Positions 1,996 through 63,560 of a stretch of DNA of 64,000 nucleotides are shown here, piece by piece (position 1 is the first letter of the stretch; each line of letters begins with the position of its first letter). The position numbers were made by a program, and so were the translations under genes. The stretch is from Candidatus Peribacteria bacterium RIFCSPHIGHO2_01_FULL_55_13 (GTDB lineage Bacteria; Patescibacteriota; Gracilibacteria; Peribacterales; Peribacteraceae), in NCBI GenBank assembly GCA_001788925.1, contig MFXS01000004.1:50464-114463 (forward strand), written 5' to 3'. The notes under the pieces were generated by a model. The model worked only from the letters and a program-made list of their open reading frames with translations. It did no database searches and was not told the DNA's origin.

Positions 1996-2064
1996 CGATT
2001 TGCCATTGGCCATTTGCGATTTGCCATTGAAAAATGGCAAGTGGTAAATGGCCAATGGCAAATC
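1996..2064. repeat. 7-nt-periodic repeat module, inverted pair (GCGATTT/GCCATTG units)
   Basis: Arms 1996-2028 and 2034-2064 are about 26/31 complementary; exactly fills gap between convergent stop codons at 1995 and 2066. Confidence 0.85.
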
Positions 2065-9884: not shown

Positions 9885-10612
9885 GAAGATGGCGTTCTCC
9901 CGCGCATTCTAATGCGGATTACCCGCCACGCATAGTTCACTGCGAGGCGGAAAAAGACGCGGAGGCTACCGTCAGTTTTGGAGACTCCCGCCTGCCGAAG
10001 CCCGTACCGGTACGGCACTTCGACGATGCTCACATTCTTTTCAAGACACGCATACACCCACTCCACGAAGTATTCACCGAAACCGTCGGGAGAGAGAGGT
10101 ACTTTTTGGAGTGTTTCTCTCCGCGCGGCGGCGAAGCCGGATGTCCAGTCCCAGAATGAAAAATGCCCCAGCACTACTCGGGTGTAGAAGTTGAAGACAT
10201 AGCTTAGAAACGCCCGGAAGCGGTGCCTGGTGTCCAAGCCACCCTTCACATAGCGCGATCCCACCGCTACTTCGTACTCATCCAGTCTCTCGACCAGTTT
10301 CACAATATCTTCCGGCGGGATGCCAAGATCACAATCCAGCCACACCACATATTTCCCTTTTGCCGCCTTCGTGCCATCCGAAAGTGCAGAGGCCAATCCG
10401 CGCTTGTCCATGCGTCGCATCAGACGGCAGCGGGGATTACCCAGTTTCTCCACCACTTCCCAGGTGCGGTCTGGGCTGTTGTCATCCACCACGATAATCT
10501 CAAGCAGGCCAGTGCCCAATGCGGAAGCCGTGCGCTCGATGGCGTCTTTGATATTGTCCCGCTCGTTATACGAGGGAATGACGACGGAAATGCTGGAAGG
10601 TTCAGGAATCAT
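9881..10612 (-). CDS. glycosyltransferase family 2 (polyprenol-phosphate sugar synthase-like)
   Basis: SVVIPSYNERDNI, VVDDNSPDRT and LDCDL motifs. Confidence 0.8.
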   Translation of the reverse strand: MIPEPSSISVVIPSYNERDNIKDAIERTASALGTGLLEIIVVDDNSPDRTWEVVEKLGNPRCRLMRRMDKRGLASALSDGTKAAKGKYVVWLDCDLGIPPEDIVKLVERLDEYEVAVGSRYVKGGLDTRHRFRAFLSYVFNFYTRVVLGHFSFWDWTSGFAAARRETLQKVPLSPDGFGEYFVEWVYACLEKNVSIVEVPYRYGLRQAGVSKTDGSLRVFFRLAVNYAWRVIRIRMRGRTPSS

Positions 10613-12847: not shown

Positions 12848-13144
12848 TCAGGTCGTCCTCTCCAAGAGGATAACCATCAAAAAGGTGCAGAAACACACAC
12901 TGATACTCGCGCACAGGAAGGTCAGGAATATCCAACCTTGGTATGCATCTAAGTGTTCCTGCTTCAGGGAAAGCTTAAACCTTACCCAGGCATTCCTAGA
13001 CCGTCGGCTTGCGTATCCACCGATCACTAAACTTGCTATCCCAACGAGGGACAGGCAGATCCAAACAAGTGGGCTCATTTCATCACCCCCTTTCCTTCCA
13101 AAGATCGATATCTTGAGTGTATGGATCCCATTACATCTGTCCAT
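12848..13144 (-). CDS. small two-TM membrane protein (hypothetical)
   Basis: ATG overlaps carbamoyltransferase stop (TAATG); two hydrophobic helices; AT-richer than neighbours. Confidence 0.35.
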   Translation of the reverse strand: MDRCNGIHTLKISIFGRKGGDEMSPLVWICLSLVGIASLVIGGYASRRSRNAWVRFKLSLKQEHLDAYQGWIFLTFLCASISVCFCTFLMVILLERTT

Positions 13145-14904
13145 TAATCCAACAAGAATTTTTTCAAATACTCCTCACTACTTCTTTTCCACTCCGGCGG
13201 CAGTTTCTTTTTATCCACGATGCACTGCCCCAGCACCAGATAATCCATGTGCGTATGAACGAAGCAGTTCCAGGCGTCTTGGGGCGATTCCACAATCGGC
13301 TCGCCGCGGACGTTAAAGGAGGTATTGATGATCACGGGGCATCCGGTCTGCTCATCAAAGGCCTTCAGAAGATCGTAGTAGAGCGCGTTCTGGTTTCGGT
13401 TGATCGTCTGGATGCGCGCGGAGCCATCCACGTGCGTCACCGCAGGAATTTCCGCCCGGTATTTCTCCCGCGTGTCGGCTACAAGGAGCATGAACGGGCT
13501 TTCACGATCCAGTTCAAAGTATTCCGATGCCTTTTCCTCAAGCACCGTCGGCGCAAACGGCCGGAAGGACTCGCGGAACTTGATCTTGAGGTTCACTTTT
13601 TTCCAGTTATTGGGATTCCGCGCGTCCGCGATGATCGAACGGTTGCCGAGCGACCGCGGGCCGTATTCCGTGCGTCCCTGAAACCAGCCGATCACATTTT
13701 CGCCCTGCAGGAGAGTGGCGACGTGCTTCGGCAGGTCTACAGCCGGGATCTTTTCCGAAGGAATCCGGTTCTTCGTCAGAAAATCCTCGATCTCCGTTTG
13801 GTTATAACTCTTTCCAAAGAAGACGTGTTCCATCCGCGGAAGCCTTTCGCCCTGCATCATCCCGTGCCATGCCATGAGTGCGGCACCCAGCGCTCCTCCG
13901 GCGTCTCCCGAAGCTGGTTGGATGAAGATGTCTTCAAATATTCCCGACCGCAGAATCTTTCCGTTGCTCACGCAGTTCAGTGCCACGCCTCCGGCGAGGC
14001 AGAGATATCGGCTTCCTGTCAGTTCCTTCGCGGCCCGGGCGAGATTCAGCATCACTTCATCGGTCAACTCCTGCAGCGACCGTGCAATGTCTTTGTGGAA
14101 CTGCTCAAGAGGGGATTCCGGCGTTCGCGTGGGTTGTCCGAACAGTTTTTCGATGCTGCGACCCGTCATCCGCAGTCCGTATTCGTAGGTGAAGTACTTC
14201 ATGTCGAGCGCGAAGCTTCCATCGGGCTTCACGTCGATCAGTTTGCGCATCTGTTCCAGATACTTTGGCTCTCCATACGGTGCGAGTCCCATCACTTTGT
14301 ACTCAGCGCTGTTCACCTTGAATCCAAGGTAATACGTTATCGCGGAGTAGAGGAGTCCGAGCGAATGCGGATAGTGTATTTCCCGAAGCAGCTTCAGCTC
14401 CTTTCCTTTGCCGTGCCCGATGGTTGTCGTTGCCCATTCACCGACGCCGTCGGCAGTCACCACAGCCGCATCCGGAAATCCCGAACAGAAAAATGCGGAC
14501 GCGGCATGTGATTCATGGTGTGACGGATAGTAGATGGGCCCCTTATACGAAAGCTCGCGGCGGATAATATGGGGAATCCAAAGCTTCTTGGGCATCCATT
14601 CCTGCATGGCCATGTGGTACTGCACAAATCCGCGCGGCCAGACCTTCATGGTTGTCTGCAGGATGCGGTCGAAGAACTTCAGTATCGGTTTCTCGTAGAA
14701 CGCGACGGCATCCAGATCTTGCGCGGTGATGCCCGCGTGCTTCAGCGCCTCTTCAATCGCCAGTTTCGGGAACGACTCATCGTGCTTCTTTCTGGAGAAG
14801 CGTTCCTCCTGCGATGCAAACACAATCTGCCCGTCTTTCAGAAGCACGGTGGCGCTATCGTGGTAGAAGCAGGAGATGCCCAATATGTAGACTGGCTTAT
14901 TCAT
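13144..14904 (-). CDS. carbamoyltransferase (NodU/CmcH/SxtI family)
   Basis: ILGISCFYHDSATVLLKDGQIVFASQEERFSRKKHD N-terminus and full-length 586-aa architecture. Confidence 0.92.
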   Translation of the reverse strand: MNKPVYILGISCFYHDSATVLLKDGQIVFASQEERFSRKKHDESFPKLAIEEALKHAGITAQDLDAVAFYEKPILKFFDRILQTTMKVWPRGFVQYHMAMQEWMPKKLWIPHIIRRELSYKGPIYYPSHHESHAASAFFCSGFPDAAVVTADGVGEWATTTIGHGKGKELKLLREIHYPHSLGLLYSAITYYLGFKVNSAEYKVMGLAPYGEPKYLEQMRKLIDVKPDGSFALDMKYFTYEYGLRMTGRSIEKLFGQPTRTPESPLEQFHKDIARSLQELTDEVMLNLARAAKELTGSRYLCLAGGVALNCVSNGKILRSGIFEDIFIQPASGDAGGALGAALMAWHGMMQGERLPRMEHVFFGKSYNQTEIEDFLTKNRIPSEKIPAVDLPKHVATLLQGENVIGWFQGRTEYGPRSLGNRSIIADARNPNNWKKVNLKIKFRESFRPFAPTVLEEKASEYFELDRESPFMLLVADTREKYRAEIPAVTHVDGSARIQTINRNQNALYYDLLKAFDEQTGCPVIINTSFNVRGEPIVESPQDAWNCFVHTHMDYLVLGQCIVDKKKLPPEWKRSSEEYLKKFLLD

Positions 14905-14956: not shown

Positions 14957-15180
14957 AACTGATACCTCATATCAGTGGAGTCTTTGCTCACATCGACCCA
15001 GTACGTGTCTGTTGGAGGCTTCCCCGAAAAGAGGTAAATCATCTTGAGGATGATCGCGTATATGCTGAACACCACAATCCAAATGATTGTGAGGAGAATC
15101 GTACTCATGATGCGCCCGAGCACATGCGAAAAGCGCATCCAGAGGTCATAGAGCTGTTGCAGTGGTTTCGGAAGTTTCAC
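14953..15180 (-). CDS. SxtJ-like small membrane protein
   Basis: 75 aa, LWMRF...hydrophobic helix...YW...MRYQF terminus as I recall for the SxtJ family; adjacent to carbamoyltransferase. Confidence 0.5.
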   Translation of the reverse strand: MKLPKPLQQLYDLWMRFSHVLGRIMSTILLTIIWIVVFSIYAIILKMIYLFSGKPPTDTYWVDVSKDSTDMRYQF

Positions 15181-15186
15181 AGTGTT

Positions 15187-15254
15187 GGATGGCTAAATGG
15201 CTAAATGGTTAGTCCACATCTATAGCATATAACCATTTAGCCATTTAACCATTC
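15187..15254. repeat. 8-nt-periodic repeat module, inverted pair (ATGGCTAA units)
   Basis: Arms 15187-15212 and 15231-15254 nearly perfectly complementary; fills gap between two minus-strand genes. Confidence 0.85.
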
Positions 15255-15260
15255 AGCTCC

Positions 15261-15419
15261 TTAAAAAACCGTGTAGATAAACGGCGCCAGCGGCGACGTC
15301 TGGGCGAAAATCAGGATTAATCCCAAAAGCACGATGATGAGAATGATAGGAAGAAGCCACCACTTCTTGCGCATGCGCATGAAGCGCCAGAGTTCGGTGA
15401 AGATGGAGAGTTTGGACAT
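15261..15419 (-). CDS. DUF5989 (SxtK-like) small membrane protein
   Basis: 52-aa ORF not in track: MSKLSIFTELWRFMRMRKKWWLLPIILIIVLLGLILIFAQTSPLAPFIYTVF; matches the DUF5989 pattern. Confidence 0.6.
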   Translation of the reverse strand: MSKLSIFTELWRFMRMRKKWWLLPIILIIVLLGLILIFAQTSPLAPFIYTVF

Positions 15420-15455: not shown

Positions 15456-16127
15456 TCACAGCATGGATGCGATCATCTCCATCACGTTCACAAACGGACT
15501 CACAATCAAATCAATCCATCCCATCAGCAGCGGAACATTAAAAATATCCTCCGCGATCAAAAGTCCCAAAAGGATCCAGGGACCTCTTCGGAGCCACTCG
15601 TTGTACTGCTCGTCGTAGCGATAGGGAATGAACACCTGGAAGATCTTGCTGCCATCCAGAGGTGCCACGGGCAGAAGGTTGAATGCCATCAGGCCGAGGT
15701 TCAGCGCGATCGAGATCCGCAGGATATCGGTAAGGACCGTTGCAAATGTCCCGCGGCCGCCGCCGGAAAGCAGGTTCCAGAAACCGCCGCCCACAGAATC
15801 GGGCGCGAGAAGTAGGAGTCCGCCGAACGCGAGGAACGCGATAATCAAATTACTGATCGGTCCCGCGATACTCACGAGTGCCGTGTCGCGCTTCCAGCTC
15901 TTGAAGTATCTAGGGTCGATCGGCACGGGTTTGCCCCATCCAAATCCCACCAAGAAGAAGAGGATCGTGCCCATCAGATCCAGGTGCGCGATGGGGTTTA
16001 AGGTCAGCCGGCCCTGTTCTTTCGCCGTCGGGTCGCCGAGGCGATGTGCGACCAGCGCGTGCGCCCATTCGTGGACGGACAGCGCGATCAGCAGGGCGAT
16101 GATGAAGGACGGGCGGAGGGCGGACAC
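15456..16127 (-). CDS. site-2 protease family (peptidase M50) metalloprotease
   Basis: HEWAHALVAHRLGD (HExxH) in TM helix, multi-pass membrane; GTG start. Confidence 0.85.
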   Translation of the reverse strand: MSALRPSFIIALLIALSVHEWAHALVAHRLGDPTAKEQGRLTLNPIAHLDLMGTILFFLVGFGWGKPVPIDPRYFKSWKRDTALVSIAGPISNLIIAFLAFGGLLLLAPDSVGGGFWNLLSGGGRGTFATVLTDILRISIALNLGLMAFNLLPVAPLDGSKIFQVFIPYRYDEQYNEWLRRGPWILLGLLIAEDIFNVPLLMGWIDLIVSPFVNVMEMIASML

Positions 16128-16132
16128 GAGAT

Positions 16133-16214
16133 AATTATGAATTAGAAATTAGAAATTAGGAATTAGCAATTATGTCTCTATCTCGCCAATTGCTAATTCC
16201 TAACTGCTAATTGG
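16133..16214. repeat. 7-nt-periodic repeat module, inverted pair (AATTAGA/AATTAGC units)
   Basis: Arms 16133-16171 and 16188-16214; lies in divergent region between M50 protease and rpmB. Confidence 0.85.
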
Positions 16215-17786: not shown

Positions 17787-17855
17787 GAATGCGGAATTCG
17801 GAATTCGGAATTGATTTTTCCTATGATTCCGAATTCCGCATTCCGAATTCCGAAT
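17787..17855. repeat. 7-nt-periodic repeat module, inverted pair (GGAATTC/GGAATGC units)
   Basis: Arms 17787-17812 and 17825-17855; in divergent region between arfB and the TPR membrane protein. Confidence 0.9.
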
Positions 17856-26289: not shown

Positions 26290-26354
26290 TTTGCCACGTT
26301 CCATTTGCGATTTACCATTTTTACAATGGCAAATGGTAAATGATAAATGGCCAA
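26290..26354. repeat. 7-nt-periodic repeat module, inverted pair (CCATTTG / ATGGCAA-ATGGTAA units)
   Basis: Fills gap between convergent stops 26289 and 26357; about 18 bp of pairing with a few mismatches. Confidence 0.85.
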
Positions 26355-27143: not shown

Positions 27144-28106
27144 TTACTTGCGCTTTACGCGGATGAACCCGGAGATATCCACCGTGGAGAGCTGCTTCTC
27201 CTCTTTTCCAAGAATATCGAGCAGCAGGTTGATGCCCAGGGCGTCGCTGGCCATGTGGCTGCACTGGACCATGTTCACGTGGTGTTTCTTGGCCTCATCG
27301 AGCGTCTTCTCGGTGACGTGCATGGAAAGGATGGTGCCGACTCCCGCGTGGGACTGGGCGATCAATTGGTCCTCCGGGCCGTTCGTTCCTCCTGTGAACT
27401 CCGTCGCCGTGATCTTGCCGGGGCGACTGTTCCTCGAGCCGTTCACGATGATCGGGGGATTTCCTTTGCGGGCGTATTCCTTGTATTCTGGAATCTCGAG
27501 AAGCGCATTGAGAATTTCTCCGAGATCATCGAACTCCTTCTTGCAGATCGTCTTTTCAATGAAGCGCCAGACGAGGTTGTCGGTGATGGTGTGGCAGCAG
27601 AACGCCGGAATGCCGAGAAGTTCCGCAGCGCGCTCGGTCCTGAAGAGGTTATCTGCATGAATCGAACGCCAGACACGGTCTTGGCGGGGTCTCAGGTGCG
27701 CTTCCGAGTGGTTTACCGGAACGCCGAGGGAAGCGAGAACATCTACCTGCAGGTCCATCACCTTGTCGAGATCGGCCAAAGCACGGCCCTCGGGATGGTG
27801 AATGAGGACCCCGTCAATTTTCTCTCCCTTGGCGCGCAACCGGTCGATCAAAAGCATTTCGGGTGTCTCGATGTCGATCCCCACGACCAGGCGCTTGATC
27901 TCTTCATTACCGTTTCCATTGATAATCCGGCAGTCGGAGTATGGATTCCATGTCCGTTCGTTGTCGGCGAATTCCTTTTCTTTGCCTTCGAGCTTCGCCT
28001 GGCGCTTTTCCTCTTTCTTCAGCGTCTTCTCGATCTGCTTTCGGCCACGGACATCCGCATCGATGCCGATATCGACGCAGCGTTGGAAGAGTTTAGAGAA
28101 CTTCAT
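27144..28106 (-). CDS. NIF3 (dinuclear metal centre)-like protein, tentative
   Basis: GVLIHHPEG and CSHMASD resemble NIF3 HHP and C-terminal H..E/D motifs. Confidence 0.45.
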   Translation of the reverse strand: MKFSKLFQRCVDIGIDADVRGRKQIEKTLKKEEKRQAKLEGKEKEFADNERTWNPYSDCRIINGNGNEEIKRLVVGIDIETPEMLLIDRLRAKGEKIDGVLIHHPEGRALADLDKVMDLQVDVLASLGVPVNHSEAHLRPRQDRVWRSIHADNLFRTERAAELLGIPAFCCHTITDNLVWRFIEKTICKKEFDDLGEILNALLEIPEYKEYARKGNPPIIVNGSRNSRPGKITATEFTGGTNGPEDQLIAQSHAGVGTILSMHVTEKTLDEAKKHHVNMVQCSHMASDALGINLLLDILGKEEKQLSTVDISGFIRVKRK

Positions 28107-28185
28107 AGTGGGAGCAGAGTACAGCGCTCATGATGGGGGAAGCAACTTTGTCTTACATGGGGAAACAATGATGTCTCTTTCGGTA

Positions 28186-28222
28186 TCCACTTTCTTTTGT
28201 CTCCCCGACAAAAGAAAGTGGA
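28186..28222. repeat. perfect 16-bp inverted repeat (TCCACTTTCTTTTGTC / GACAAAAGAAAGTGGA)
   Basis: Loop TCCCC; sequence related to the GGAAAGT heptamer family. Confidence 0.8.
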
Positions 28223-28385
28223 GAAAGAAAAGCGCACCGCGCGCCAATACTCCTCCGCCCGGCCCTGGGTCTCGATGGAAACGCCTCCAAGGCTTCGGCG
28301 TTTTCATCTCGACTTCCGTCCGCTGCGGCGAACGGAAAAGCAGGGCCTTCCCCAACACCCCCCGTGGCGCGCGGAACCCACCCGC

Positions 28386-30470
28386 CTATGTTTTTACTAC
28401 GACTTTGGCATCCAATACTGAAATCCCTGCATCAGAAACAAGCACGGGATTACAATCAAGTTCTTCTATCTGCGGACATTCGTGAAGCATCTCCGAGACA
28501 GCGACGATTGCTCGTGCCAGCGCATCAATATCACTCCTCGCTTTTCCGCGCATGCCCAGCAGCAGTTTCCAGCTCTTTAATTCCGTAAGCATCCGGTATG
28601 CCTCTTCTTCGTTGATCGGTGCAATCCGGAATACCGTATCTCTGAAGAGTTCCGTATAGATACCGCCGAGCCCTACCATCACCATCGGGCCGAAGGAGGC
28701 ATCCTGAAGACCGCCGATGATGAATTCGTTGCCTGGGGGGAGGTGCTTTTGGATTAAAATTGAGAATGGAGAATTGAGAATTGAGAATTTGGATGCTGTG
28801 ACATTCGCCATGATTTCTTCGCATGCTTTCCGAACGTCCGCTTCATTCTGAAGATTGCCTTTCACGCCTCCGATGTCGGTTTTATGCAGAATCTGCGGTG
28901 AACTGATCTTGGCGATCACCGGAAATCCGATGTCTTTGGCAATCTGCACGGCTTCATCAGCCGACGTCGCGACTTTGGCTTTGGGTTGCGGCAATTGGTA
29001 GAGATCGAAGAGTTCTTTAGAGGTGTCTTCATCCAGTAACCCTGAATGCTTCCCGAGAATCTTCTGGGCCTTCTCTTTCCGTACACGCGCTCCGCGTTTT
29101 TCGGATGCCTCCGCGCCGTTTTTTCGGGGAAGCAGCGTTGCCATCGCATGGACCGCCGCTTCCGGAGTAGGGAAGTGGGGGATGCCGGCCTCCATCAGAA
29201 TTTTTTCTCCTTTTTCCACGCTCGGGCCGCCCATGAAGCAGGCGACAATGGGCATCAGCGACTGGCGTTTATGGAAATCCGCTATCGCGGTGGCGATTTC
29301 TTCGACGGGTGTCATCACCTGAGGGGTCAGAAGCGTCACGACACCATCAATACCCGAGTCATCACCAGTTGCTTCGAGTGCGGAGGAGTAGCGGTCGCAC
29401 AGAGCATCACCGAGAACGTCGATGGGGTTCCCGATGCTTGCGGAAGAGGGGAGTTGGCCTTTCAGGCGATTGCACATTGCAGATTGCAGAGGGGGCAACT
29501 CAAGACCGGCTGCCTCGGTGGCATCTGTCGCAAGGATTCCCGGACCGCCGGCGTTGGTGATCACGGCAATGCGGTTCGTTCGTAATTGTGGCTGCGTGGA
29601 AAGCGTCTGGAGGAGCATCAAAAATTCTTCAGCATTCGCTGCACGATGGATTCCGGCTTGTGCGCATGCGGCATCGATGGCAGCGCTTGATCCGGCAAGC
29701 GCTCCCGTATGCGAAGCAGCTGCTTTACGTCCGGCATCGGAAACGCCGGACTTCAGAAGCACGATTGGTTTTCTTTGACTGATCGTGCCTGCGGTCTTTA
29801 AAAACCGTCGGCCGTCTTTGATGCTTTCAAGATAGAACCCGATCACTTTTGTCTCAGGATCCTCCGCAAGTTCTTCCAAGAAGTCACACTCGTCCATCAG
29901 GGCCTTGTTGCCGATGCTCAAAATCTGCGAGTAGCCGATGCCGAGGCTCAGCGATTGGTCGATCAGCGCCACCGCAAGAGCCCCGGATTGGCTCACCAGC
30001 GCAATCGATCCTGCTTTCGGGAGATCTTTGGCAAAGGAAGCATTCAAGCCAATACTCGGGATCAGGATACCTAAGCAATTTGGGCCGATGATGCGGATTT
30101 TCGATTTACTATTTATGATTTGCGATTGAGCAGCATCGATAATCTGTTGTTCGAGGATTTTTCCTTCATCCGTATGCGTCTCACTGAATCCTGCCGTGAT
30201 GATGACGGCTGTTTGAATACCTTTGGCAACGCATTCTTTCACGATGCCGGGAACCGTGTGCGCCGGCGTCACGATGATTGCGGTATCGACTGCTCCGGGA
30301 ATGTCGCCGATCGTCTTGAACGATTTCTTCCCAAGAATTTCTTCACCTTTCGTATTCACCGCGTACACCTCACCTTTGAATCCTTGCGTCAACAGATTGT
30401 TATAAATCATGTGGCCCACTTTGTGCGGGCTTGCGCTTGCTCCGATGACGGCGATGGATGTTGGGTGCAT
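28386..30470 (-). CDS. acetate--CoA ligase (ADP-forming), fused alpha/beta
   Basis: CoA-binding N-terminus IAVIGASASPHKVGH, succinyl-CoA-synthetase-like and ATP-grasp domains, 694 aa. Confidence 0.9.
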   Translation of the reverse strand: MHPTSIAVIGASASPHKVGHMIYNNLLTQGFKGEVYAVNTKGEEILGKKSFKTIGDIPGAVDTAIIVTPAHTVPGIVKECVAKGIQTAVIITAGFSETHTDEGKILEQQIIDAAQSQIINSKSKIRIIGPNCLGILIPSIGLNASFAKDLPKAGSIALVSQSGALAVALIDQSLSLGIGYSQILSIGNKALMDECDFLEELAEDPETKVIGFYLESIKDGRRFLKTAGTISQRKPIVLLKSGVSDAGRKAAASHTGALAGSSAAIDAACAQAGIHRAANAEEFLMLLQTLSTQPQLRTNRIAVITNAGGPGILATDATEAAGLELPPLQSAMCNRLKGQLPSSASIGNPIDVLGDALCDRYSSALEATGDDSGIDGVVTLLTPQVMTPVEEIATAIADFHKRQSLMPIVACFMGGPSVEKGEKILMEAGIPHFPTPEAAVHAMATLLPRKNGAEASEKRGARVRKEKAQKILGKHSGLLDEDTSKELFDLYQLPQPKAKVATSADEAVQIAKDIGFPVIAKISSPQILHKTDIGGVKGNLQNEADVRKACEEIMANVTASKFSILNSPFSILIQKHLPPGNEFIIGGLQDASFGPMVMVGLGGIYTELFRDTVFRIAPINEEEAYRMLTELKSWKLLLGMRGKARSDIDALARAIVAVSEMLHECPQIEELDCNPVLVSDAGISVLDAKVVVKT
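28751..28792. repeat. 7-nt-periodic repeat module in CDS (AAATTGA/GAATTGA units)
   Basis: Read on minus strand as KFSILNSPFSILIQ. Confidence 0.85.
30093..30130. repeat. 7-nt-periodic repeat module in CDS (xxxGATT units)
   Basis: Read as [10 protein letters not shown]; 30102-30127 matches 63234-63259 at 25 of 26 nt. Confidence 0.85.
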
Positions 30471-31535: not shown

Positions 31536-32021
31536 ATGCTATTGCGCTACAATGCGCAGGTGTCATCACTCCAGATTATTTACGCCAGTACCAGCGGGCA
31601 TACCGAGTACGTTGTCGGCGTCCTGACAGAGGTTTTAAAAGGAGCGTTGCAGGTTGCAACGTGCAATGCCGAGGCTGCAACGCCGGAGGATCTTTTGAAA
31701 GGAGATAACCTTATTCTTGCCTGCGGCACCTGGAATACCGATGGGCCTGAGGGGCAGCTCAATCCGCATATGAAAGATCTTCTGGTTGGCAGGGCCAAGG
31801 ACATTGATCTTGCCGGGAAGCAGGTTGCCATTATCGCGCTTGGTGATGACCGTTATTACTATACCTGCAGGTCGGGGGAGCACATGCGCAGGTTCGTGCT
31901 CGATCACGGCGGAAAGATCCTCGGAGATGCATTGCTTGTGGTGAATGAGCCGTACGGTCAGGAGGAGAGAGTGAAGAAGTGGGCGGAAGCTCTTCATCAA
32001 AAATTAGCAATTAGGAATTAG
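31536..32021 (+). CDS. flavodoxin
   Basis: IIYASTSGHTEYV FMN-phosphate loop and LACGTWNTDG; track start trimmed to 31536. Confidence 0.8.
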   Translation: MLLRYNAQVSSLQIIYASTSGHTEYVVGVLTEVLKGALQVATCNAEAATPEDLLKGDNLILACGTWNTDGPEGQLNPHMKDLLVGRAKDIDLAGKQVAIIALGDDRYYYTCRSGEHMRRFVLDHGGKILGDALLVVNEPYGQEERVKKWAEALHQKLAIRN

Positions 32022-32035
32022 CAATTAGCAATTTT
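31999..32035. repeat. 7-nt-periodic repeat module (AATTAGC/AATTAGG units), left arm flanking korA
   Basis: Supplies the last codons and TAG stop of flavodoxin; ends at the korA ATG; inverted partner at 33801-33836. Confidence 0.85.
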
Positions 32036-33826
32036 ATGCGAATTTCACTCAAAGTTACCGGCGCGCAAGGTCAAGGAGTCAACTCCATAGGAGAGATGTG
32101 TGCAAAGGGTCTCAAGCGTGCGGGGTACTGCGTGTTTGGATACAAAGAATATATGTCCCTCATCAAAGGCGGACACAGCAGTTATCAGCTTGATGTCGCA
32201 TCCGAAGCCATCGAGAGCAGCGAGACAACGGTGGATATGCTCGTGTGTTTCAATCACCACGGACTCGAGCGTAATGCACTAGAGGTGAAGAGCTGCGGGA
32301 TCATCCTGCACCAGACGCCGCAGTGGAAATACACCAAAGAACAGCAGAAGGTGCTCGAGGATCGTGGCATCCGGACGGTATATCTCCCTTCAGAGGACAT
32401 CCTGAAAAAGCTCAAGGCGAAGCCGATCTTAGGCAACGTGCTCGTCACATCTGTCGTCTGGGCATTGCTTGGGCGCAAGGCTGAAGAACTGAAGGAGCTT
32501 GTGCAGGAACAGTTCGGGCATAAAGGGGAGAAGGTGGTAGCGATGAACTTCCAGTGCATCGAAGAAGGGTTCGCATTCTTGGGAGAGGAAAGTGGAAAGT
32601 GGAAAGTGGAAAGTGGGCTGCGGTTACCCAAGTCTGATCCTTCATGGAAAGATCATCTGCTGATTACCGGAAGCGAGGCGATGGGACTCGGGCTCATCCA
32701 CGCAGGATGCCGTCTGTACTGCGGATATCCGATGACGCCGAGTTCGCCGCTGCTGAGTTACATCGCGGGGATGCAGAACAAGACCGGGATGATCATCAAG
32801 CAGGCGGAAGATGAGATCACGGCCGCGCAGATGATGAGCGGGGCGATGCACATGGGCACACGCGCAGCGACGGGCACCTCGGGCGGGGGATTCGACCTCA
32901 TGACCGAGACGCTTTCACTCGATGCCATCATCGAAAATCCTTCCGTCTTCATTCTCGCACAGCGCCCTGGGCCAGCAACGGGCCTTCCTACATGGACCGC
33001 GCAGGGTGATCTTCTTCTGGCCGTGGGTTCGTCGCACGGGGAATTCGCGCGCTGCGTGATTTCCGTGGCCGATGCACAGGATTGCTACGACCTGATGCCC
33101 GAAGCATTTAACATTGCCGAGAAATATCAGACTCCGGTGATTGTGATGACGGATAAGCAGATCGCAGAAGCGTTATTCACGCAGAAACCGTACGATCAGA
33201 AGAAGGCGAAGCTTGATCGGGGAAATCTGGTGACCGATCCGAAGGCCTTAAAGAAGCTCAAGAGCACGGACCGCTACGATCCGAATGCTAAGGATGGCAT
33301 CTCCCCGCGATGGCTTCCCGGAAGCCTTGCTGCGACCTACTGTGCGCAGGGTGACGAGCATAACGGCGATGGTTCTGTAGATGAAAGCGCGAAGAATGCG
33401 GTGGAGCAGATAGAGAAGAGGATGAAGAAGATGAAAGCGATGGAGCGGGAGACGCCAGAGCCTGTACTGACGGTAATGAGCAATGAGAAATTAGCAGTTA
33501 GCAATGAAGAGCCGGCATTGGATCTTCTTGTGGTGAGCTGGGGGAGTAATAAGGGGGTGATCATGGATGCTTTGAAGGTTGCGGGTTCCGGGTTACGGGT
33601 TGGGTATCTCCATTACACATACCTCTGGCCGATGAAGACAGAGAGGCTGAGCAAGTTGATGAAAAAGTCGAAAAAGACCGTGCTTGTGGAGTGCAACTAT
33701 GGAGGACAACTTGGCATGTTGATTCAGATGGCCGGAGGCCCCACGATCAAAGAAAAGATTTTGAAATATGACGGCAGGCCGTTCTTCGTCGATGAGCTCC
33801 AAAAATTGCTCATTGCTAACTCCTAA
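32036..33826 (+). CDS. 2-oxoacid:ferredoxin oxidoreductase, fused gamma-alpha subunit
   Basis: 596 aa; GAQGQGVNS gamma-domain N-terminus then the alpha domain (GYPMTPSSPLL). Confidence 0.9.
   Translation: MRISLKVTGAQGQGVNSIGEMCAKGLKRAGYCVFGYKEYMSLIKGGHSSYQLDVASEAIESSETTVDMLVCFNHHGLERNALEVKSCGIILHQTPQWKYTKEQQKVLEDRGIRTVYLPSEDILKKLKAKPILGNVLVTSVVWALLGRKAEELKELVQEQFGHKGEKVVAMNFQCIEEGFAFLGEESGKWKVESGLRLPKSDPSWKDHLLITGSEAMGLGLIHAGCRLYCGYPMTPSSPLLSYIAGMQNKTGMIIKQAEDEITAAQMMSGAMHMGTRAATGTSGGGFDLMTETLSLDAIIENPSVFILAQRPGPATGLPTWTAQGDLLLAVGSSHGEFARCVISVADAQDCYDLMPEAFNIAEKYQTPVIVMTDKQIAEALFTQKPYDQKKAKLDRGNLVTDPKALKKLKSTDRYDPNAKDGISPRWLPGSLAATYCAQGDEHNGDGSVDESAKNAVEQIEKRMKKMKAMERETPEPVLTVMSNEKLAVSNEEPALDLLVVSWGSNKGVIMDALKVAGSGLRVGYLHYTYLWPMKTERLSKLMKKSKKTVLVECNYGGQLGMLIQMAGGPTIKEKILKYDGRPFFVDELQKLLIANS
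32585..32617. repeat. 7-nt-periodic repeat module in CDS (GGAAAGT x4)
   Basis: Read as EESGKWKVESG at the gamma/alpha domain junction. Confidence 0.9.
33473..33509. repeat. 7-nt-periodic repeat module in CDS (GCAATGA/GAAATTA/GCAGTTA units)
   Basis: Read as VMSNEKLAVSNEE; same family as the arms flanking the gene. Confidence 0.7.
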
Positions 33827-35212: not shown

Positions 35213-35905
35213 ATGCGGATAGATATCATCACGCTTTTTCCGGCGATGTTCCAAGGTCCTCTAACCGAGAGCATCCTAAAACGTGCCCAGGATGAAGAAA
35301 AACTGGAGATTGTCTTTCATGACCTTCGCCAGTTCGGCCTTGGGAAATATCATCAGGTGGATGACAGCCCGTATGGCGGCGGCGCCGGAATGTTGATGAG
35401 AGCAGATGTAATTGTTCCGGCGTTAGAGAAGATCGCCGAAAGAAAAATGCATAAAGGAAAAAGCAAAAAGCCGTACACGATCTATTTTTCTCCGAGAGGG
35501 AAGAAGTTAAAGCAGGCGAAGGTGGAGAAGCTGGCGAAGAAAGAATGGCTGATCCTACTTTGCGGACATTACGAAGGCATTGATCAGCGTGTCATCGACG
35601 GTGGCTGGTTCGACGGGGCTCACCATAAATGGATCGATGAAGAGATTTCGATCGGGGATTATGTGCTGACCGGCGGCGAGCTTCCAGCAATGGTCCTGAT
35701 CGACGCTGTGGCGCGGCAGATTCCGGGGGTGCTCGGGAAAGAGGCTTCAGTACACGAAGAGAGCTTTTCGGCTTCCCTCGGCCGTAAAAAGGAATATCCG
35801 CATTTCACGCGCCCGGAGGAATTTAGGGGGCTCAAGGTGCCCGATATTCTGCTTTCCGGGCATCACGGGGAGATAGAGAAGTGGAGGAAGGAAAACGTGA
35901 AGTAA
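35213..35905 (+). CDS. trmD: tRNA (guanine37-N1)-methyltransferase
   Basis: MRIDIITLFPAMFQGPL, GHYEGIDQRV and IGDYVLTGGELPAMVLIDAV motifs. Confidence 0.93.
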   Translation: MRIDIITLFPAMFQGPLTESILKRAQDEEKLEIVFHDLRQFGLGKYHQVDDSPYGGGAGMLMRADVIVPALEKIAERKMHKGKSKKPYTIYFSPRGKKLKQAKVEKLAKKEWLILLCGHYEGIDQRVIDGGWFDGAHHKWIDEEISIGDYVLTGGELPAMVLIDAVARQIPGVLGKEASVHEESFSASLGRKKEYPHFTRPEEFRGLKVPDILLSGHHGEIEKWRKENVK

Positions 35906-35935
35906 TTGAAAATTGAAAATGTAAAATTGAAAATT
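35904..35935. repeat. 7-nt-periodic repeat module (AATTGAA units), single arm
   Basis: Runs from the trmD stop to the next ATG; 35904-35933 is identical to 43600-43629 (30/30 nt). Confidence 0.9.
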
Positions 35936-37426: not shown

Positions 37427-37477
37427 TTTCGTGAATTTTCCGCGTATCTTCCTCTGAATGCAATAGACAACAGACAA

Positions 37478-37539
37478 ATGCATAAAGCAAAAAGGATAAT
37501 GCAAAAATATTTTTGCTTTTTGCTTTATGCTTTATGCAT
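37478..37539. repeat. 7-nt-periodic repeat module, near-perfect palindrome (GCATAAA/GCAAAAA/GGATAAT units)
   Basis: In the divergent region, ending 6 nt before the wecG-like ATG. Confidence 0.9.
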
Positions 37540-37545
37540 TTCCCC

Positions 37546-38280
37546 ATGGCTTCACGCATTCCCATTCTCGGCGTTCCCATTGATCCCGTCACGATGGAGG
37601 AGGCGGTTACGTGCGTTCTGTCGATGCTCCATGGGTTGAAGCAGTGCCATGTGATGACACCGAACAACGAGATGCTCGTGGAGGCAGACCGCAATGCCGC
37701 TTTTAAAAGCGTCCTTCAGAGGAGCGATCTCAATCTCCCGGACAGCACCGGGCTTCTGTGGGCGGCTCGTAGAACAGGGGAGAGGATTCCAGAGCGTGTG
37801 AGCGGGGTGGATTTTGTGGAGAGACTGTGTGGGGCGTTGGATCAGAGTATTCCGGTGTTTTTTTTGGGGGGGAGGGGTGGAGCAGCGGAGAAAGCGGCGG
37901 AGAAATTCGGAATGCGGAATTCAGAATTCGGAATTGCAGGAGTATTTGAAGGATCTCCGAAAGATATGGATGCAGATCAGATCATCCAGGCAGTGAATAC
38001 TTCCGGTGCCAAGCTGCTACTGGTGGCTTACGGTGCGCCGAAGCAGGATCTCTGGATCGCGAAACATCTTTCGAAGATGCCTACGGTGCGTGTCGCGATC
38101 GGCGTCGGTGGTACATTCGATTTTCTGTCAGGAACGATCAAACGGGCGCCACGATGGTTGCGGTCACTGGGACTCGAGTGGTTGTGGAGACTGATCCTTC
38201 AGCCGTGGCGTATCAAAAGAATCTGGACGGCCGTCGTTATATTTCCGATGCTCGTCCTCATGTCAAAAAAGCAGAACTGA
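37546..38280 (+). CDS. WecB/TagA/CpsF family glycosyltransferase
   Basis: ILGVPIDPVTMEEAV, TPNNEML and LGLEWLWRLILQPWR motifs. Confidence 0.85.
   Translation: MASRIPILGVPIDPVTMEEAVTCVLSMLHGLKQCHVMTPNNEMLVEADRNAAFKSVLQRSDLNLPDSTGLLWAARRTGERIPERVSGVDFVERLCGALDQSIPVFFLGGRGGAAEKAAEKFGMRNSEFGIAGVFEGSPKDMDADQIIQAVNTSGAKLLLVAYGAPKQDLWIAKHLSKMPTVRVAIGVGGTFDFLSGTIKRAPRWLRSLGLEWLWRLILQPWRIKRIWTAVVIFPMLVLMSKKQN
37902..37937. repeat. 7-nt-periodic repeat module in CDS (GGAATGC/GGAATTC units)
   Basis: Read as KFGMRNSEFGIAG; same peptide as the guaA insert. Confidence 0.85.
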
Positions 38281-40979: not shown

Positions 40980-42332
<1,353 letters not shown>

Positions 42333-44282: not shown

Positions 44283-46107
44283 GGAAGGTTCCGTTCATCC
44301 AAAGTCCATCGCTATTCTCGATTTCGGAGGCCAGTATGCGCACCTGATCGCCAGCCGCATCCGGCGTTTTGGGTATCCCTCCTATATCTACCCGTGTGAC
44401 ATCGATCCCACAGAATTAAGGGGAGTTGCTGGCATCATTCTCTCTGGTGGGCCACAGAGCGTGTACGACAAGGGGAGTCCGCAGGCGGATCCGAAGATTT
44501 TTGATCTTGGTATTCCGGTTCTGGGACTTTGCTACGGGCATCAGTGGCTGGCGCATGCGCTTGGCGGCCGAGTGGCTGCTGCGAAGGTTAAGGAATATGG
44601 ATCTACGCTGGTGAAGCGAGCGGAAAAAGAAAAAAGCAAAAAGGAAAATGATTTGTTTGAAGGATTTCCGGAGCAGTGGACGGTCTGGATGTCGCATGGC
44701 GACGAAGTGAGTGAGCTTCCGCCGGGATTTATCCGCACTGCAAGTACGAAAGATTGCATCAACGCGGCGATGGTGAATCCGGAGAGAAACATTTTCGGCA
44801 TCCAGTGGCATAACGAGGTGACGCACACGGAGCATGGCATGGAAATCCTCCGGAGGTTTGCGGAATTCTGTAAGCCTGCGCAGTGGTCGATTAAAAGTTA
44901 TGCCGATCATGTGGGTGCGCAGATCAAAGAAGAGGTGGGTGGCAAGAAAGTCTTTATGCTGGTCTCCGGAGGGGTGGATTCCACGGTCGCGTTCACGCTT
45001 CTGAACAAGGTCCTTGGCGCAGATCGTGTACAGGGGCTCCTCGTCGATACGGGATTGATGCGCAAAGGAGAGGTGAAGATGATTGAAGAAGCGTTTGCAA
45101 AGCTCAAGATCAAAAATCTGCACATCGAAGATGCATCAGAGGAATTTTTTGCGAATCTGAAAGGCGTTTATGGACCGGAAGAGAAGAGGAAGATCATTGG
45201 GAATACATTTTTAGAGGTGCAGAAGAGGGTGTTTGAAGAAATGCGGAATTCGGAATTCGGAATTCGGAATGAGGTGTGCTTGTTGGGTCAAGGGACCATT
45301 TATCCAGACACGATTGAAACCGGAGGGACCAAGCACGCGGACAAGATCAAGACGCATCACAACCGTGTGGAGGCGATCCAGAAAATGATTGAGCAGGGAC
45401 TCGTGATCGAGCCGCTCAAGGAACTCTATAAAGATGAAGTGCGTATTCTGGGCGAAGAACTGGGATTGCCGCATGCACTCGTATGGCGGCATCCATTTCC
45501 GGGGCCGGGACTTGGCGTTCGAATTCTTTGTGCGAAGAATTCGAACGAATTGAAAATTGAAAATGGAAAATTGAAAATTGAGTTCCAACACACGGTGTTG
45601 CCCGTGCAATCGGTGGGTGTGCAAGGTGACGGAAGAACCTATCGGCATGCGATCGTTGTTTTCGGTAAAGATCCCTCGAAGATTACTACGGAGCATCTGG
45701 AGCTTGCGACGCAGGTGCCTAACAGTAATCGCGAAATCAATCGTGTGCTTCTTTGCACGTCTCAATCTGAGCGCACAGAATTTTCGGTGACGCCGGGGGC
45801 GATCACCCGCGAGCGCGCAGACCTTCTCCGTGAAGCAGATGACATCGTCCTTCAGGAAATGCGAAACGCAGGTCTCTATGAAAAAATCTGGCAGTTCCCA
45901 GTCGTGTTACTTCCTCTCGGGAAGGGGAAAGGACAGTCGATTGTCCTTCGCCCTATCTCTTCCACCGACGCGATGACAGCGAATGCATTTGTATTGCCTC
46001 CCGAAGTCATCCAAACGATCACCAAAAAGATCATGCAATTGCCGGGCATCGATGCGGTTTTCTATGACCTCACCAATAAGCCGCCGGCGACTATAGAGTG
46101 GGAGTAG
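44281..46107 (+). CDS. guaA: GMP synthase (glutamine-hydrolysing), long form
   Basis: ILDFGGQYAHLIASRIR, LGLCYGHQ, SGGVDSTV and GQGTIYPD motifs. Confidence 0.93.
   Translation: MEGSVHPKSIAILDFGGQYAHLIASRIRRFGYPSYIYPCDIDPTELRGVAGIILSGGPQSVYDKGSPQADPKIFDLGIPVLGLCYGHQWLAHALGGRVAAAKVKEYGSTLVKRAEKEKSKKENDLFEGFPEQWTVWMSHGDEVSELPPGFIRTASTKDCINAAMVNPERNIFGIQWHNEVTHTEHGMEILRRFAEFCKPAQWSIKSYADHVGAQIKEEVGGKKVFMLVSGGVDSTVAFTLLNKVLGADRVQGLLVDTGLMRKGEVKMIEEAFAKLKIKNLHIEDASEEFFANLKGVYGPEEKRKIIGNTFLEVQKRVFEEMRNSEFGIRNEVCLLGQGTIYPDTIETGGTKHADKIKTHHNRVEAIQKMIEQGLVIEPLKELYKDEVRILGEELGLPHALVWRHPFPGPGLGVRILCAKNSNELKIENGKLKIEFQHTVLPVQSVGVQGDGRTYRHAIVVFGKDPSKITTEHLELATQVPNSNREINRVLLCTSQSERTEFSVTPGAITRERADLLREADDIVLQEMRNAGLYEKIWQFPVVLLPLGKGKGQSIVLRPISSTDAMTANAFVLPPEVIQTITKKIMQLPGIDAVFYDLTNKPPATIEWE
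44620..44650. repeat. 7-nt-periodic A-rich repeat module in CDS
   Basis: Read as RAEKEKSKKEN in the GATase domain. Confidence 0.6.
45241..45273. repeat. 7-nt-periodic repeat module in CDS (GGAATTC x3 plus variants)
   Basis: Read as MRNSEFGIRNE just upstream of the conserved GQGTIYPD. Confidence 0.9.
45537..45582. repeat. 7-nt-periodic repeat module in CDS (AATTGAA units, third unit AAATGGA)
   Basis: Read as NSNELKIENGKLKIE. Confidence 0.9.
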
Positions 46108-52038: not shown

Positions 52039-52488
52039 TTACCCGATAGCCTGATAATCAACAATCAATACTCCTTCGAGATGGTCTACTTCATGCTGAA
52101 CAACCCGTGCATCAAAATGCTTCAATTTCCGTTCCTGGGCCTTACCCTTCGCATCAATGTACTTGAGCGTTATCTCCACCGATCGCGGAACATCGACGGC
52201 GATTCCTGGAAGGCTCAGGCACCCCTCTTCCGCTGATTCCTTCTCTTCACTTTTCTTCGTGATTTTTGGATTGATCAAGGGAATCATCTTTCCGGAGATC
52301 AATGCGAGGCAGACGCGTTCCGTGCGGGCCACCTGCGGCGCCGCGATTCCCGCACCATCGGCGTCTTTTACCGTTTCCTGGAGGTCCTTGATCAGCTTCA
52401 GAAGCTCTTTGGTCACCTTCGGCACGCTCTTCGTCTTTTTGCGAAGGAGCGGGTGGTCTGCGCCGATGATGATGGGAAGTACGGACAA
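52039..52488 (-). CDS. def: peptide deformylase
   Basis: GAGIAAPQV, EGCLSLPG and QHEVDHLEG motifs; the TTG start lies at the edge of the repeat hairpin. Confidence 0.92.
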   Translation of the reverse strand: MSVLPIIIGADHPLLRKKTKSVPKVTKELLKLIKDLQETVKDADGAGIAAPQVARTERVCLALISGKMIPLINPKITKKSEEKESAEEGCLSLPGIAVDVPRSVEITLKYIDAKGKAQERKLKHFDARVVQHEVDHLEGVLIVDYQAIG

Positions 52489-52557
52489 TTCGGAATGAGG
52501 AATGCGGAATGCGGAATTGCTGCAACATCATAATTCCGAATTCCGAATTCCGCATTC
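52488..52557. repeat. 7-nt-periodic repeat module, inverted pair (GGAATGA/GGAATGC / GAATTCC units)
   Basis: Exactly fills the gap between the dnaQ-like stop (52558) and the def start (52488). Confidence 0.9.
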
Positions 52558-63065: not shown

Positions 63066-63560
63066 TCATAAAGCGATGTCCGTGAGGACACACTCCTGTT
63101 CTAGGGTTTTTTCGAGCAAATATTCCCAGGATTGCTTTATGACGGGGTGCTTGAATTGCGGGTCGATCAGTTCGCAGAGGGGCTCGAGGACAAAACGGCG
63201 TTCGTGCATGCGAGGGTGGGGCAGGACGATTTGCGATTTACTATTGATGATTTGCGATTTGTTTCCATGCAATAAGAGATCGAGATCAATTGTTCTGGGG
63301 CCGAAACGGAAGGGCGGAGCTTTGCCCAGCGATTGCTCGATGCTTTGCAAGATACGATAGATATCTTCAGAGGATTTCTGGGTATCACAGGTTGCAACGG
63401 TATTCAGGAAATCATTCTGATCCTCCACTTCGCGGGCGGCCGTGCGGTAGACGGAGGAGAATTCGATATCAGGAAAATGTTCCCGGAGCAAAGCGGCTGC
63501 TTTTTGAAGATTCATTTCAGGATCGATATTGCTGCCGAGGCCGAGGAAGATCTGTGTCAT
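63066..63560 (-). CDS. folK: 2-amino-4-hydroxy-6-hydroxymethyldihydropterin pyrophosphokinase
   Basis: [19 protein letters not shown] and [12 protein letters not shown] motifs. Confidence 0.88.
63226..63262. repeat. 7-nt-periodic repeat module in CDS (xxxGATT units)
   Basis: Read as [12 protein letters not shown] between the conserved DLDLLL and PHPRMHER. Confidence 0.85.

Follow-up and report, generated by a model that had tools for sequence, protein, structure and literature searches.

We analysed 64,000 nt of the genome of Candidatus Peribacteria bacterium RIFCSPHIGHO2_01_FULL_55_13 (contig MFXS01000004.1, positions 50,464 to 114,463; hereafter the window), in which two unrelated enzyme genes, encoding an ADP-forming acyl/acetyl-CoA synthetase (ACD) and HPPK (FolK), carry a near-identical short segment. 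Both segments are probably members of one subfamily (AAATCGC) of a dispersed family of ~32-nt heptamer cassettes and came to match through copying. On the + strand, the segment reads CGATTTACTATT[T/G]ATGATTTGCGATT at 30102-30127 in ACD and at 63234-63259 in FolK, and the match stretches to 32 nt (30096-30127 versus 63228-63259), of which 30 are identical (94%). The initial annotation had reported near-identity over 26 nt in two unrelated enzyme genes, with both copies on the coding minus strand and the FolK copy between the motifs DLDLLL and PHPRMHER. All of this was confirmed: 25 of the 26 positions agree, dinucleotide-preserving shuffles gave no such match (0/100), both long ORFs lie on the minus strand, and the FolK segment does sit between these motifs. 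A discrete 26-nt module specific to the two enzymes, as the same annotation had it, was not what we found. The object is a 32-nt cassette of heptamers, present ~36-40 times in the window, and such cassettes are found in eight or more housekeeping genes and at many junctions between genes. No third copy of the 26-mer was found in the window with up to three mismatches allowed. The ACD-FolK pair is nonetheless not unique, because 21 cassette pairs in the window, this one included, are identical at 26 or more of 28 positions. Its occurrence in two enzymes is ordinary within this Peribacteria genome.

The cassettes share a strict architecture. Tandem Repeats Finder (TRF) returned ~45 arrays of period 7 across the window, with 4.3-4.9 copies in most of them, and under one scoring scheme 35 arrays had period 7 versus 0-3 at any other period between 3 and 12. 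All 36 arrays that were oriented and phased took the form (AA[T/A]NNNN)x4 + AA[T/A](T). Among these, unit position 1 was A in 99% and position 2 A in 97% of units, and position 3 was T (70%) or A (28%), which gives each unit an AAW anchor. Unit positions 4-7 were family-specific (AATTGAA, AATTCGG, AATTAGC, AAAGTGG, AATGGAA, AAAGGAA, AATGGCA, AATCGCA and others), and at least seven unit families occur side by side in 64 kb with AAW as their sole common part. Runs of consecutive anchors peaked at five; six in a row occurred four times, and no run reached seven. A typical array thus has five anchors at 7-nt spacing with four 4-nt spacers that resemble one another, and it is a discrete cassette of ~32 nt, not an open-ended microsatellite.

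A detector for this architecture gave 39 hits in the window on both strands (6.1 per 10 kb), none in 20 shuffles and eight in unrelated control loci totalling 1.26 Mb (0.064 per 10 kb), so that the window was ~100x denser than the controls, which were mostly loci of 39-58%-identical ACD homologues of other phyla among the matches listed. Period-7 arrays were dense in the close relatives L001 and L002 as well (2.9-5.3 per 10 kb). More distant Peribacteria (L008-L012) had period-7 arrays made of other units, e.g. CTACCCG and AAAACCC. Such arrays were essentially absent from ~75 control loci of other phyla, a few isolated similar cassettes aside. These isolated ~32-nt arrays (AATNNNN x4 + AAT) were seen in control loci L028, L061, L063, L070 and L046, on contigs of Fervidibacter, Thermoguttaceae, Nitrospinae, Firestonebacteria and Acidobacteriota, and the cassette design may extend beyond Peribacteria. 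A search of the whole window against Rfam at gathering thresholds returned one tRNA only and no match to the cassettes.

Table 1 Cassettes and host genes in the window, with the unit content of selected sites in related species (R, T and G, defined in the text).
Feature	Position	Strand	Content in the window	Content in relatives	Remarks
ADP-forming acyl/acetyl-CoA synthetase (ACD) gene, 694 aa	28386..30470	-			8wzu_A, E = 4e-138; CoA-ligase and ATP-grasp Pfam domains
HPPK/FolK gene, 164 aa	63066..63560	-			Pfam PF01288; hosts the FolK cassette
Cassette in ACD (site 1)	30096..30127	-	Coding strand AATCGCA AATCATA AATAGTA AATCGAA AATC		TRF period 7, 4.6 copies
Cassette in FolK	63227..63261	-	Coding strand AATCGCA AATCATC AATAGTA AATCGCA AATCG		TRF period 7, 5.0 copies
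Second cassette in ACD (site 2)	28758..28789	-	AATTGAG family on the + strand		Peptide KFSILNSPFSI
Inverted pair	1997..2064	.			Fills the gap of two convergent genes exactly; hairpin -53 kcal/mol, z -12.3
Inverted pair	16133..16213	.	AATTAGN family		Between ORFs of opposite orientation
Inverted pair	17787..17855	.	GAATTCG family		z -7.2
Inverted pair	37476..37541	.	AAAGCAA family		Repeat family I16; folding test
Inverted pair	52487..52557	.	AATGCGG/AATTCCG family		Folding test
Single cassette forming a whole gene junction	32002..32033	+	AATTAGC	R AATTGAA	Overlaps the stop codon upstream; its end is 2 nt from the PFOR ATG
Single cassette between genes	35904..35935	+			Exactly between the TrmD TAA and the next ATG
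Two cassettes in PFOR alpha	32587-32616, 33475-33507	+	GGAAAGT (32587), AATGAGC (33475)	R (T/G)GAAAAT (32587), AATTGAA (33475)
Cassette in TrmD	35439..35471	+
Cassette in WecG glycosyltransferase	37904..37935	+	AATTCGG	R AATTGCA
Two in-frame cassettes in WecB epimerase	41440-41473, 41703-41733	+
Two inverted pairs in the Wzy_C membrane-protein gene	42547-42577/42638-42667, 43600-43629/43636-43667	+			z -8.5, -7.4
Three in-frame cassettes in GuaA	44624-44648, 45240-45270, 45548-45581	+	Site 1: AAAAAGN	Site 1: T AATTGAA; G pure AAATCGC x5 (KSQIANRKSQI)

Roughly half of the cassettes in the window lie at gene boundaries, mostly as inverted pairs, and the rest lie inside genes in frame (Table 1). 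The in-frame hosts were ACD, FolK, GuaA, WecB, Wzy, PFOR, TrmD and WecG, as well as a TPR protein; ACD carries a short 3.3-unit array at 29468-29490 in addition to its cassettes at 30096-30127 and 28758-28789. The A-rich strand was the sense strand in 11/12 single cassettes internal to coding sequences (CDS), which yields peptides rich in K/E/N/S/Q/I. Of these twelve, only the cassette at 28758-28789 has the T-rich strand as sense, and other T-rich readings, e.g. FSIFNFQFSI, belong to partner arms in the Wzy_C membrane protein. In ORF-internal AATTGAA cassettes, the unit that would put TGA in frame was changed to AATGGAA or AATGTAA. Both the strand bias and the TGA-avoiding units fit filtering by protein tolerance. 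The ACD and FolK copies are both read as SQIINSKS(K/Q)I, and this shared frame is partly forced, because stops occupy both other sense frames of the ACD copy and one of those of the FolK copy. We also considered avoidance of stop codons as the source of the CAT and AGT units and rejected it, as a pure AAATCGC array is stop-free in three frames (determined by hand) and the CATA variant creates a stop. A GC-rich period-7 array (GGTTGCG GGTTCCG GGTTACG) was observed at 33577-33601 in PFOR alpha, and its counterpart in species R (L088) looked heptamer-periodic by eye with another unit, roughly AAGGGCN. Heptamer arrays without AAW anchors thus exist too, and content switching may occur there.

The inverted pairs fold strongly (z -3.4 to -12.3), whereas the single cassettes of ACD and FolK have no partner arm and are unstructured (folding z -0.1 and +1.1). 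The cassette at 35904-35935 is identical at 32/32 positions in species R, with flanks only 71% identical, and at 28/28 positions to the cassette at 43600 within the window, the odd unit AATGTAA included. A promoter-like reading of AATTGAA...TAAAAT was rejected, the spacing being only ~10 nt by eye. A further hairpin-forming inverted pair, at 15175-15266 in the gap of ORFs 13144..14904 and 15456..16127, is made of an 8-nt unit (ATGGCTAA / CCATTTAG).

We compared these sites with four related species. Species R, represented by loci L088 and L089 of ENA contig NODE_202, has 79-82% nucleotide identity to the window over 25.6-40.1 kb and 52.3-64.0 kb, and species S (L096), T (L097) and G (GCA_007376635.1; L001 and L098) align over 36-56 kb. 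The GuaA of species G is named 'Candidatus Peregrinibacteria bacterium Greene1014_49' by NCBI, and the closest homologues of FolK, ACD and GuaA all came from Candidatus Peregrinibacteria/Peribacteria. In all four species, cassettes had the same positions and boundaries as in the window, with a different unit family (Table 1). By unit phase, the differences between species were all-or-none (e.g. 0/5, 0/5, 0/5, 1/5, 4/4, 4/4, 4/4), and the AAW anchors differed at 1/90 positions, with flanks 67-84% identical. Both arms of the Wzy hairpin change family jointly (AATGAAG in species S, GCAACTT in species G). The dominant families were AATTGAA in species R and AATGAAG/AATTAAG in species S, and species G was rich in AAATCGC. 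Independent point substitution cannot yield such patterns; the cassettes evolve in concert at the nucleic-acid level, whatever the reading frame.

Whole cassettes were also gained or lost, with a +30-nt cassette in species R at ~55820, where the window has none, and a cassette at 26325 in the window that species R lacks. No target-site duplications were found at filled versus shorter or absent sites in relatives, and single cassettes have no terminal inverted repeats. Lengths differed in frame by 21 nt (3 units) at GuaA site 1 (species S, P0245, P0246 and P0248) and at ACD site 2 (P0126), and these exact 3-unit steps between species mean that in-frame slippage operates too. GC-rich inserts of ~15-33 nt (e.g. 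...CCGAAGCTTCAGCGGAGGCGGG..., TTCGACTCGCTC...), nested in or beside cassettes, were seen in the species R FolK at L089 ~10388-10440, at the WecB and Wzy sites of species G (L098) and in P0125 and P0123 of the ACD alignment, with peptides such as SFSGGGS and FDRAQDKP. They suggest a second small repeat family with a preference for cassette sites.

At the protein level, the initial annotation had expected a length difference relative to orthologues, which was found, although not as a clean 9-10-aa insertion. Between DLDLLL and PHP, the loop of FolK exceeds that of most Peribacteria FolK and of solved HPPK structures by 3 aa, and ACD has 6 aa more at site 1 than its 56-60%-identical Peregrinibacteria orthologues or chain 8wzu_A. 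Every ACD orthologue of at least 66% identity had some peptide of heptamer character at this site (KSQIANGKSQI, KSQIANRTSQM, RTNQKTNKRTN, NQRINASTNQRIN, TQPATQNPQL). Net gains elsewhere were +2 aa at ACD site 2 relative to distant orthologues (with P0126 shorter there by 7 aa, or 3 units) and +7 and +4 aa at GuaA sites 1 and 2. The cassettes thus mostly overwrite pre-existing loop residues, hence the small net gains. In an AlphaFold model of FolK (mean pLDDT 90.9), the module (residues 101-111) lies in a loop after strand 91-98, mostly irregular and of lower confidence (pLDDT ~73).

Presence or absence of the segments between strains, which had also been envisaged, was not seen: the exact FolK protein was found on 24-32 contigs and the exact ACD on 18, from several samples, and other members of the ACD 90% cluster differed in length only. 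Contigs from Rifle aquifer metagenomes were among those with the identical FolK protein. Between species, cassette presence, absence and content do differ. The ACD of species R (L088 10001-12076) was called as two ORFs of 507 and 141 aa, with several 1-4-nt indels opposite window 28878-28993. This split is probably an assembly error at ~5x coverage, or else early gene decay; several 1-4-nt indels in a ~5x-coverage contig led us to reject the cassettes as its cause.

The orthologous cassettes also bear on how the ACD and FolK copies came to be alike. In species G, the FolK cassette reads AATCGCA AATCATC AATCGCA AATCGCA AATCG, so that its third unit alone differs from the window. In species R, the ACD cassette is almost purely AATCGCA (x4.5), with P0136 and P0130 reading KSQIANG/R. 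Since these relatives' cassettes are without AATAGTA, this unit is derived in both genes of the window lineage, as is AATCATA in ACD. The exact 21-mer CAAATCATAAATAGTAAATCG (ACD version) was also found in four other metagenomic contigs, in other contexts. In L090 and L094 it forms one arm of an inverted pair; in L091 it has an array on the opposite strand alongside; and in L093 it lies in frame, with EQIINSKSS read in a protein. A very similar cassette is held by an NTP-transferase gene of species G, and the imperfect 35904/43600-type cassette occurs at three or more species R loci where the window has other families.

Taken together, the cassettes occupy long-lived, fixed sites in this Peribacteria genome. 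Between genes these are mostly inverted pairs forming hairpins, or single spacers flush with stop and start codons; within genes, the cassettes are translated, and the resulting peptides in surface loops of housekeeping enzymes would be passengers. The anchors do not change, and the variable positions switch jointly in all units and in the two arms of a pair. We propose that the ACD and FolK copies, which have the odd units AATCAT(A/C) and AATAGTA in common, are nearly identical through non-reciprocal copying in the lineage of the window organism, by short-tract ectopic conversion or template switching; one cassette may have been copied into the other, or both from a third 'master' copy. Neither independent slippage nor selection on a peptide accounts for the match. 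The peptide SQIINSKS(K/Q)I would have no function common to both enzymes and would reflect a stop-free frame, tolerated as hydrophilic and in loops. A shared functional protein motif was rejected, as orthologues carry other families or nothing at those sites; it is also undercut by the same peptide family in the GuaA of species G and by a frame largely set by stops.

Several points weigh against copying between dispersed cassettes. The polarity of AATAGTA rests on two or three relatives, and the species R contig has ~5x coverage and frameshifts in ACD. No enzyme or template for copying was identified. Different families share the anchors alone, which is too little homology for ordinary RecA-mediated conversion, and simple conversion does not readily explain the opposite-polarity cassette in the species R FolK. 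Slippage of the ordinary kind clearly contributes too, so part of the concerted evolution could be within-array, and the strong conservation of the anchors could mark functional binding sites and not neutral passengers.

Among rival explanations, each array may have evolved independently in situ as a microsatellite, with local replication slippage or transient misalignment homogenising it, so that the ACD and FolK copies are alike only through the AAATCGC unit. Among long simple-sequence repeats, those with heptanucleotide units show the strongest over-representation in many bacteria (PMC4692102, PMC4679880), the 3-unit in-frame steps between species are of this kind, and all-or-none phase changes suit within-array homogenisation. 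We nevertheless consider this account unlikely. The two copies share non-consensus units (CAT-A/C and AGT-A) at the same positions, and the compared orthologues are without AATAGTA; the same imperfect 21-mer recurs in four other contigs, and identical imperfect cassettes lie at unlinked loci. Moreover, array size peaks sharply at five anchors in a distribution that is not geometric, and single-unit steps would frameshift arrays in CDS. Alternatively, the cassettes may be functional nucleic-acid elements, either with the five AAW anchors as sites for a lineage-specific protein (a cold-shock or S1-type OB-fold protein, or a nucleoid protein, bound to DNA or to single-stranded RNA/DNA) or as regulatory hairpins or terminators, and the ACD and FolK copies would then regulate their mRNAs. 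Retention of the anchors at 89/90 positions irrespective of frame, despite 16-33% flank divergence, speaks for this, as do intergenic cassettes flush with start and stop codons, the very stable hairpins of the pairs, the co-variation of both hairpin arms and the cassette that is 32/32 identical between species. There is also a precedent in the S1, Csp or Csr binding proposed for TAACTGA repeats, where CspB binds one heptamer per protein (PMC4679880). Function does not by itself account for the likeness of spacers within a cassette, however. The host genes are functionally unrelated, sites are contracted or absent in close relatives that retain the gene, the units of more distant Peribacteria are without AAW anchors, and no binding protein is known, all of which makes this explanation quite improbable.

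A classical mobile element, i.e. a MITE- or REP-like miniature transposon or half of one, inserted separately into each gene by a RAYT or IS200/IS605-type transposase, would explain a dispersed family with near-identical copies and frequent inverted pairs, the clean +30-nt cassette of species R and the window-only cassette at 26325, and the same core in other genomes. It is very improbable given the lack of target-site duplications and of terminal inverted repeats on single cassettes, identical orthologous sites in four species while their content changes, and net length changes of +2 to +7 aa, not +10-11 aa. No transposase was found among 10 window ORFs scanned, which is not an exhaustive scan of the window. 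A chance match or assembly artefact deserves next to no credence: the sequence is AT-rich and of low complexity, and metagenome assemblies can create chimeras, but 0/100 shuffles gave the match, the identical proteins recur on 18-32 contigs assembled independently, from several samples and by several assemblers, and orthologues in other species have cassettes at the same sites. An active templated 'cassette-rewriting' in Peribacteria, in which five-AAW ~32-nt sites are repeatedly re-synthesised or converted genome-wide, essential enzyme genes included, from few master sequences by a dedicated enzyme (reverse transcriptase, primase-polymerase or a guide-directed system) and not by passive slippage, is speculative and rather doubtful. 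Diversity-generating retroelements mutate adenines, and an origin from such an element was rejected since the adenine anchors are the invariant part here.

Among known systems, the cassettes come closest to the heptanucleotide long simple-sequence repeats of bacteria, of which they are a new variant. Known examples include the cyanobacterial STRR, GGGAATC of Xanthomonas, GGGGA(T/C)T of Nostoc and TAACTGA of Beggiatoaceae (PMC4692102, PMC4679880, citing Mrazek et al. 2007). Like these, the Peribacteria cassettes consist of head-to-tail 7-nt units with strong lineage-specific over-representation, occur singly or in convergent inverted pairs, lie in many cases only a few nucleotides from a start or stop codon, and vary in length and sequence at conserved positions between close species. 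Unlike heptanucleotide repeats of 2-40 or more copies, the cassettes are almost fixed in size (4 units plus anchor, ~32 nt); copy number differed by 3 units between species, and no within-population variation was seen. They further differ in having many families with the AAW anchor alone in common, where the known repeats have one characteristic unit, and in their block-wise family switch at orthologous sites and identical imperfect cassettes at unlinked loci. In addition, about half are in frame in conserved enzymes, though 7 is not a multiple of 3.

Rickettsia palindromic elements, reportedly described by Ogata et al. in 2000, are said to be selfish-looking in-frame repeats in housekeeping genes, tolerated at protein surfaces and kept in orthologues. 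They are reportedly palindromic, ~100-150 bp long and of a conserved family consensus, and we know of no block-wise content switching described for them. The Peribacteria cassettes resemble them in lying in frame in conserved genes and being retained in orthologues, but are ~32-nt tandem heptamers, and neither the ACD nor the FolK copy has a partner arm or folds. REP/BIME elements and MITEs are short dispersed repeats that form intergenic hairpins, and some MITEs extend or interrupt ORFs; MITEs in coding sequences are reported for Coxiella. Unlike these, single cassettes are not palindromic and have an internal 7-nt period; they showed neither terminal inverted repeats nor target-site duplications, and the 10 window ORFs scanned included no transposase. 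The tandem repeats of Borgs, where they lie in ORFs, are reported to have units that are a multiple of 3 nt long, whereas the Peribacteria units are 7 nt, with a fixed copy number, on a bacterial chromosome. The Borg repeats are described as fast-evolving and as adding new, probably disordered peptide segments inside ORFs (PMC9879509). Our literature search found no paper describing heptamer cassettes in Peregrinibacteria, and short repeats at the origin were the only repeats mentioned in the five-genome Peribacteria paper.

Two other features of the window were noted. A ~200-nt intergenic element at 28180-28379, between ORF 27144..28106 and the ACD stop codon, opens with a hairpin (CCACTTTCTTTTGTC...GACAAAAGAAAGTGG) and is 76-84% identical to non-orthologous places in relatives, namely L001 1-175, L096 1270-1443 and sites between FolB and FolK (L001 9805-9996 and L089 9881-10049). 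The element seems to supply the N-terminal extension of the species R FolK call. It matched no Rfam family at gathering thresholds and nothing in the phage collection, and may be a second, unrelated mobile or non-coding-RNA element. The cumulative GC skew has its minimum at ~30-32 kb, and the largest ORFs turn from mostly minus to mostly plus strand, a sequence pattern that would be expected at a replication origin. The window had no DnaA-box cluster (10 matches versus 7.8 expected, none near 31 kb), and no dnaA was seen among the ORFs translated around 28.5-32 kb.

The ACD-FolK match itself carries no enzymological meaning. What is unusual is the presence of repeats whose unit is not a multiple of three, in frame, in core enzymes of a small candidate-phyla-radiation genome, at sites fixed across species where the variable bases are rewritten together and the anchors kept. 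If genome-wide, the cassettes would offer a tractable system in nature in which to study ectopic template switching or conversion across ~30-nt tracts and would be a source of lineage-specific loop insertions in candidate-phyla-radiation proteins. Annotation and alignment would then be affected by spurious 'shared motifs' between unrelated proteins, and Peribacteria populations could be followed with the cassettes as fast-evolving markers. Should templated rewriting by a dedicated enzyme prove true, it would constitute a previously unrecognised bacterial sequence-homogenising system, with a steady supply of new loop peptides in a reduced genome.

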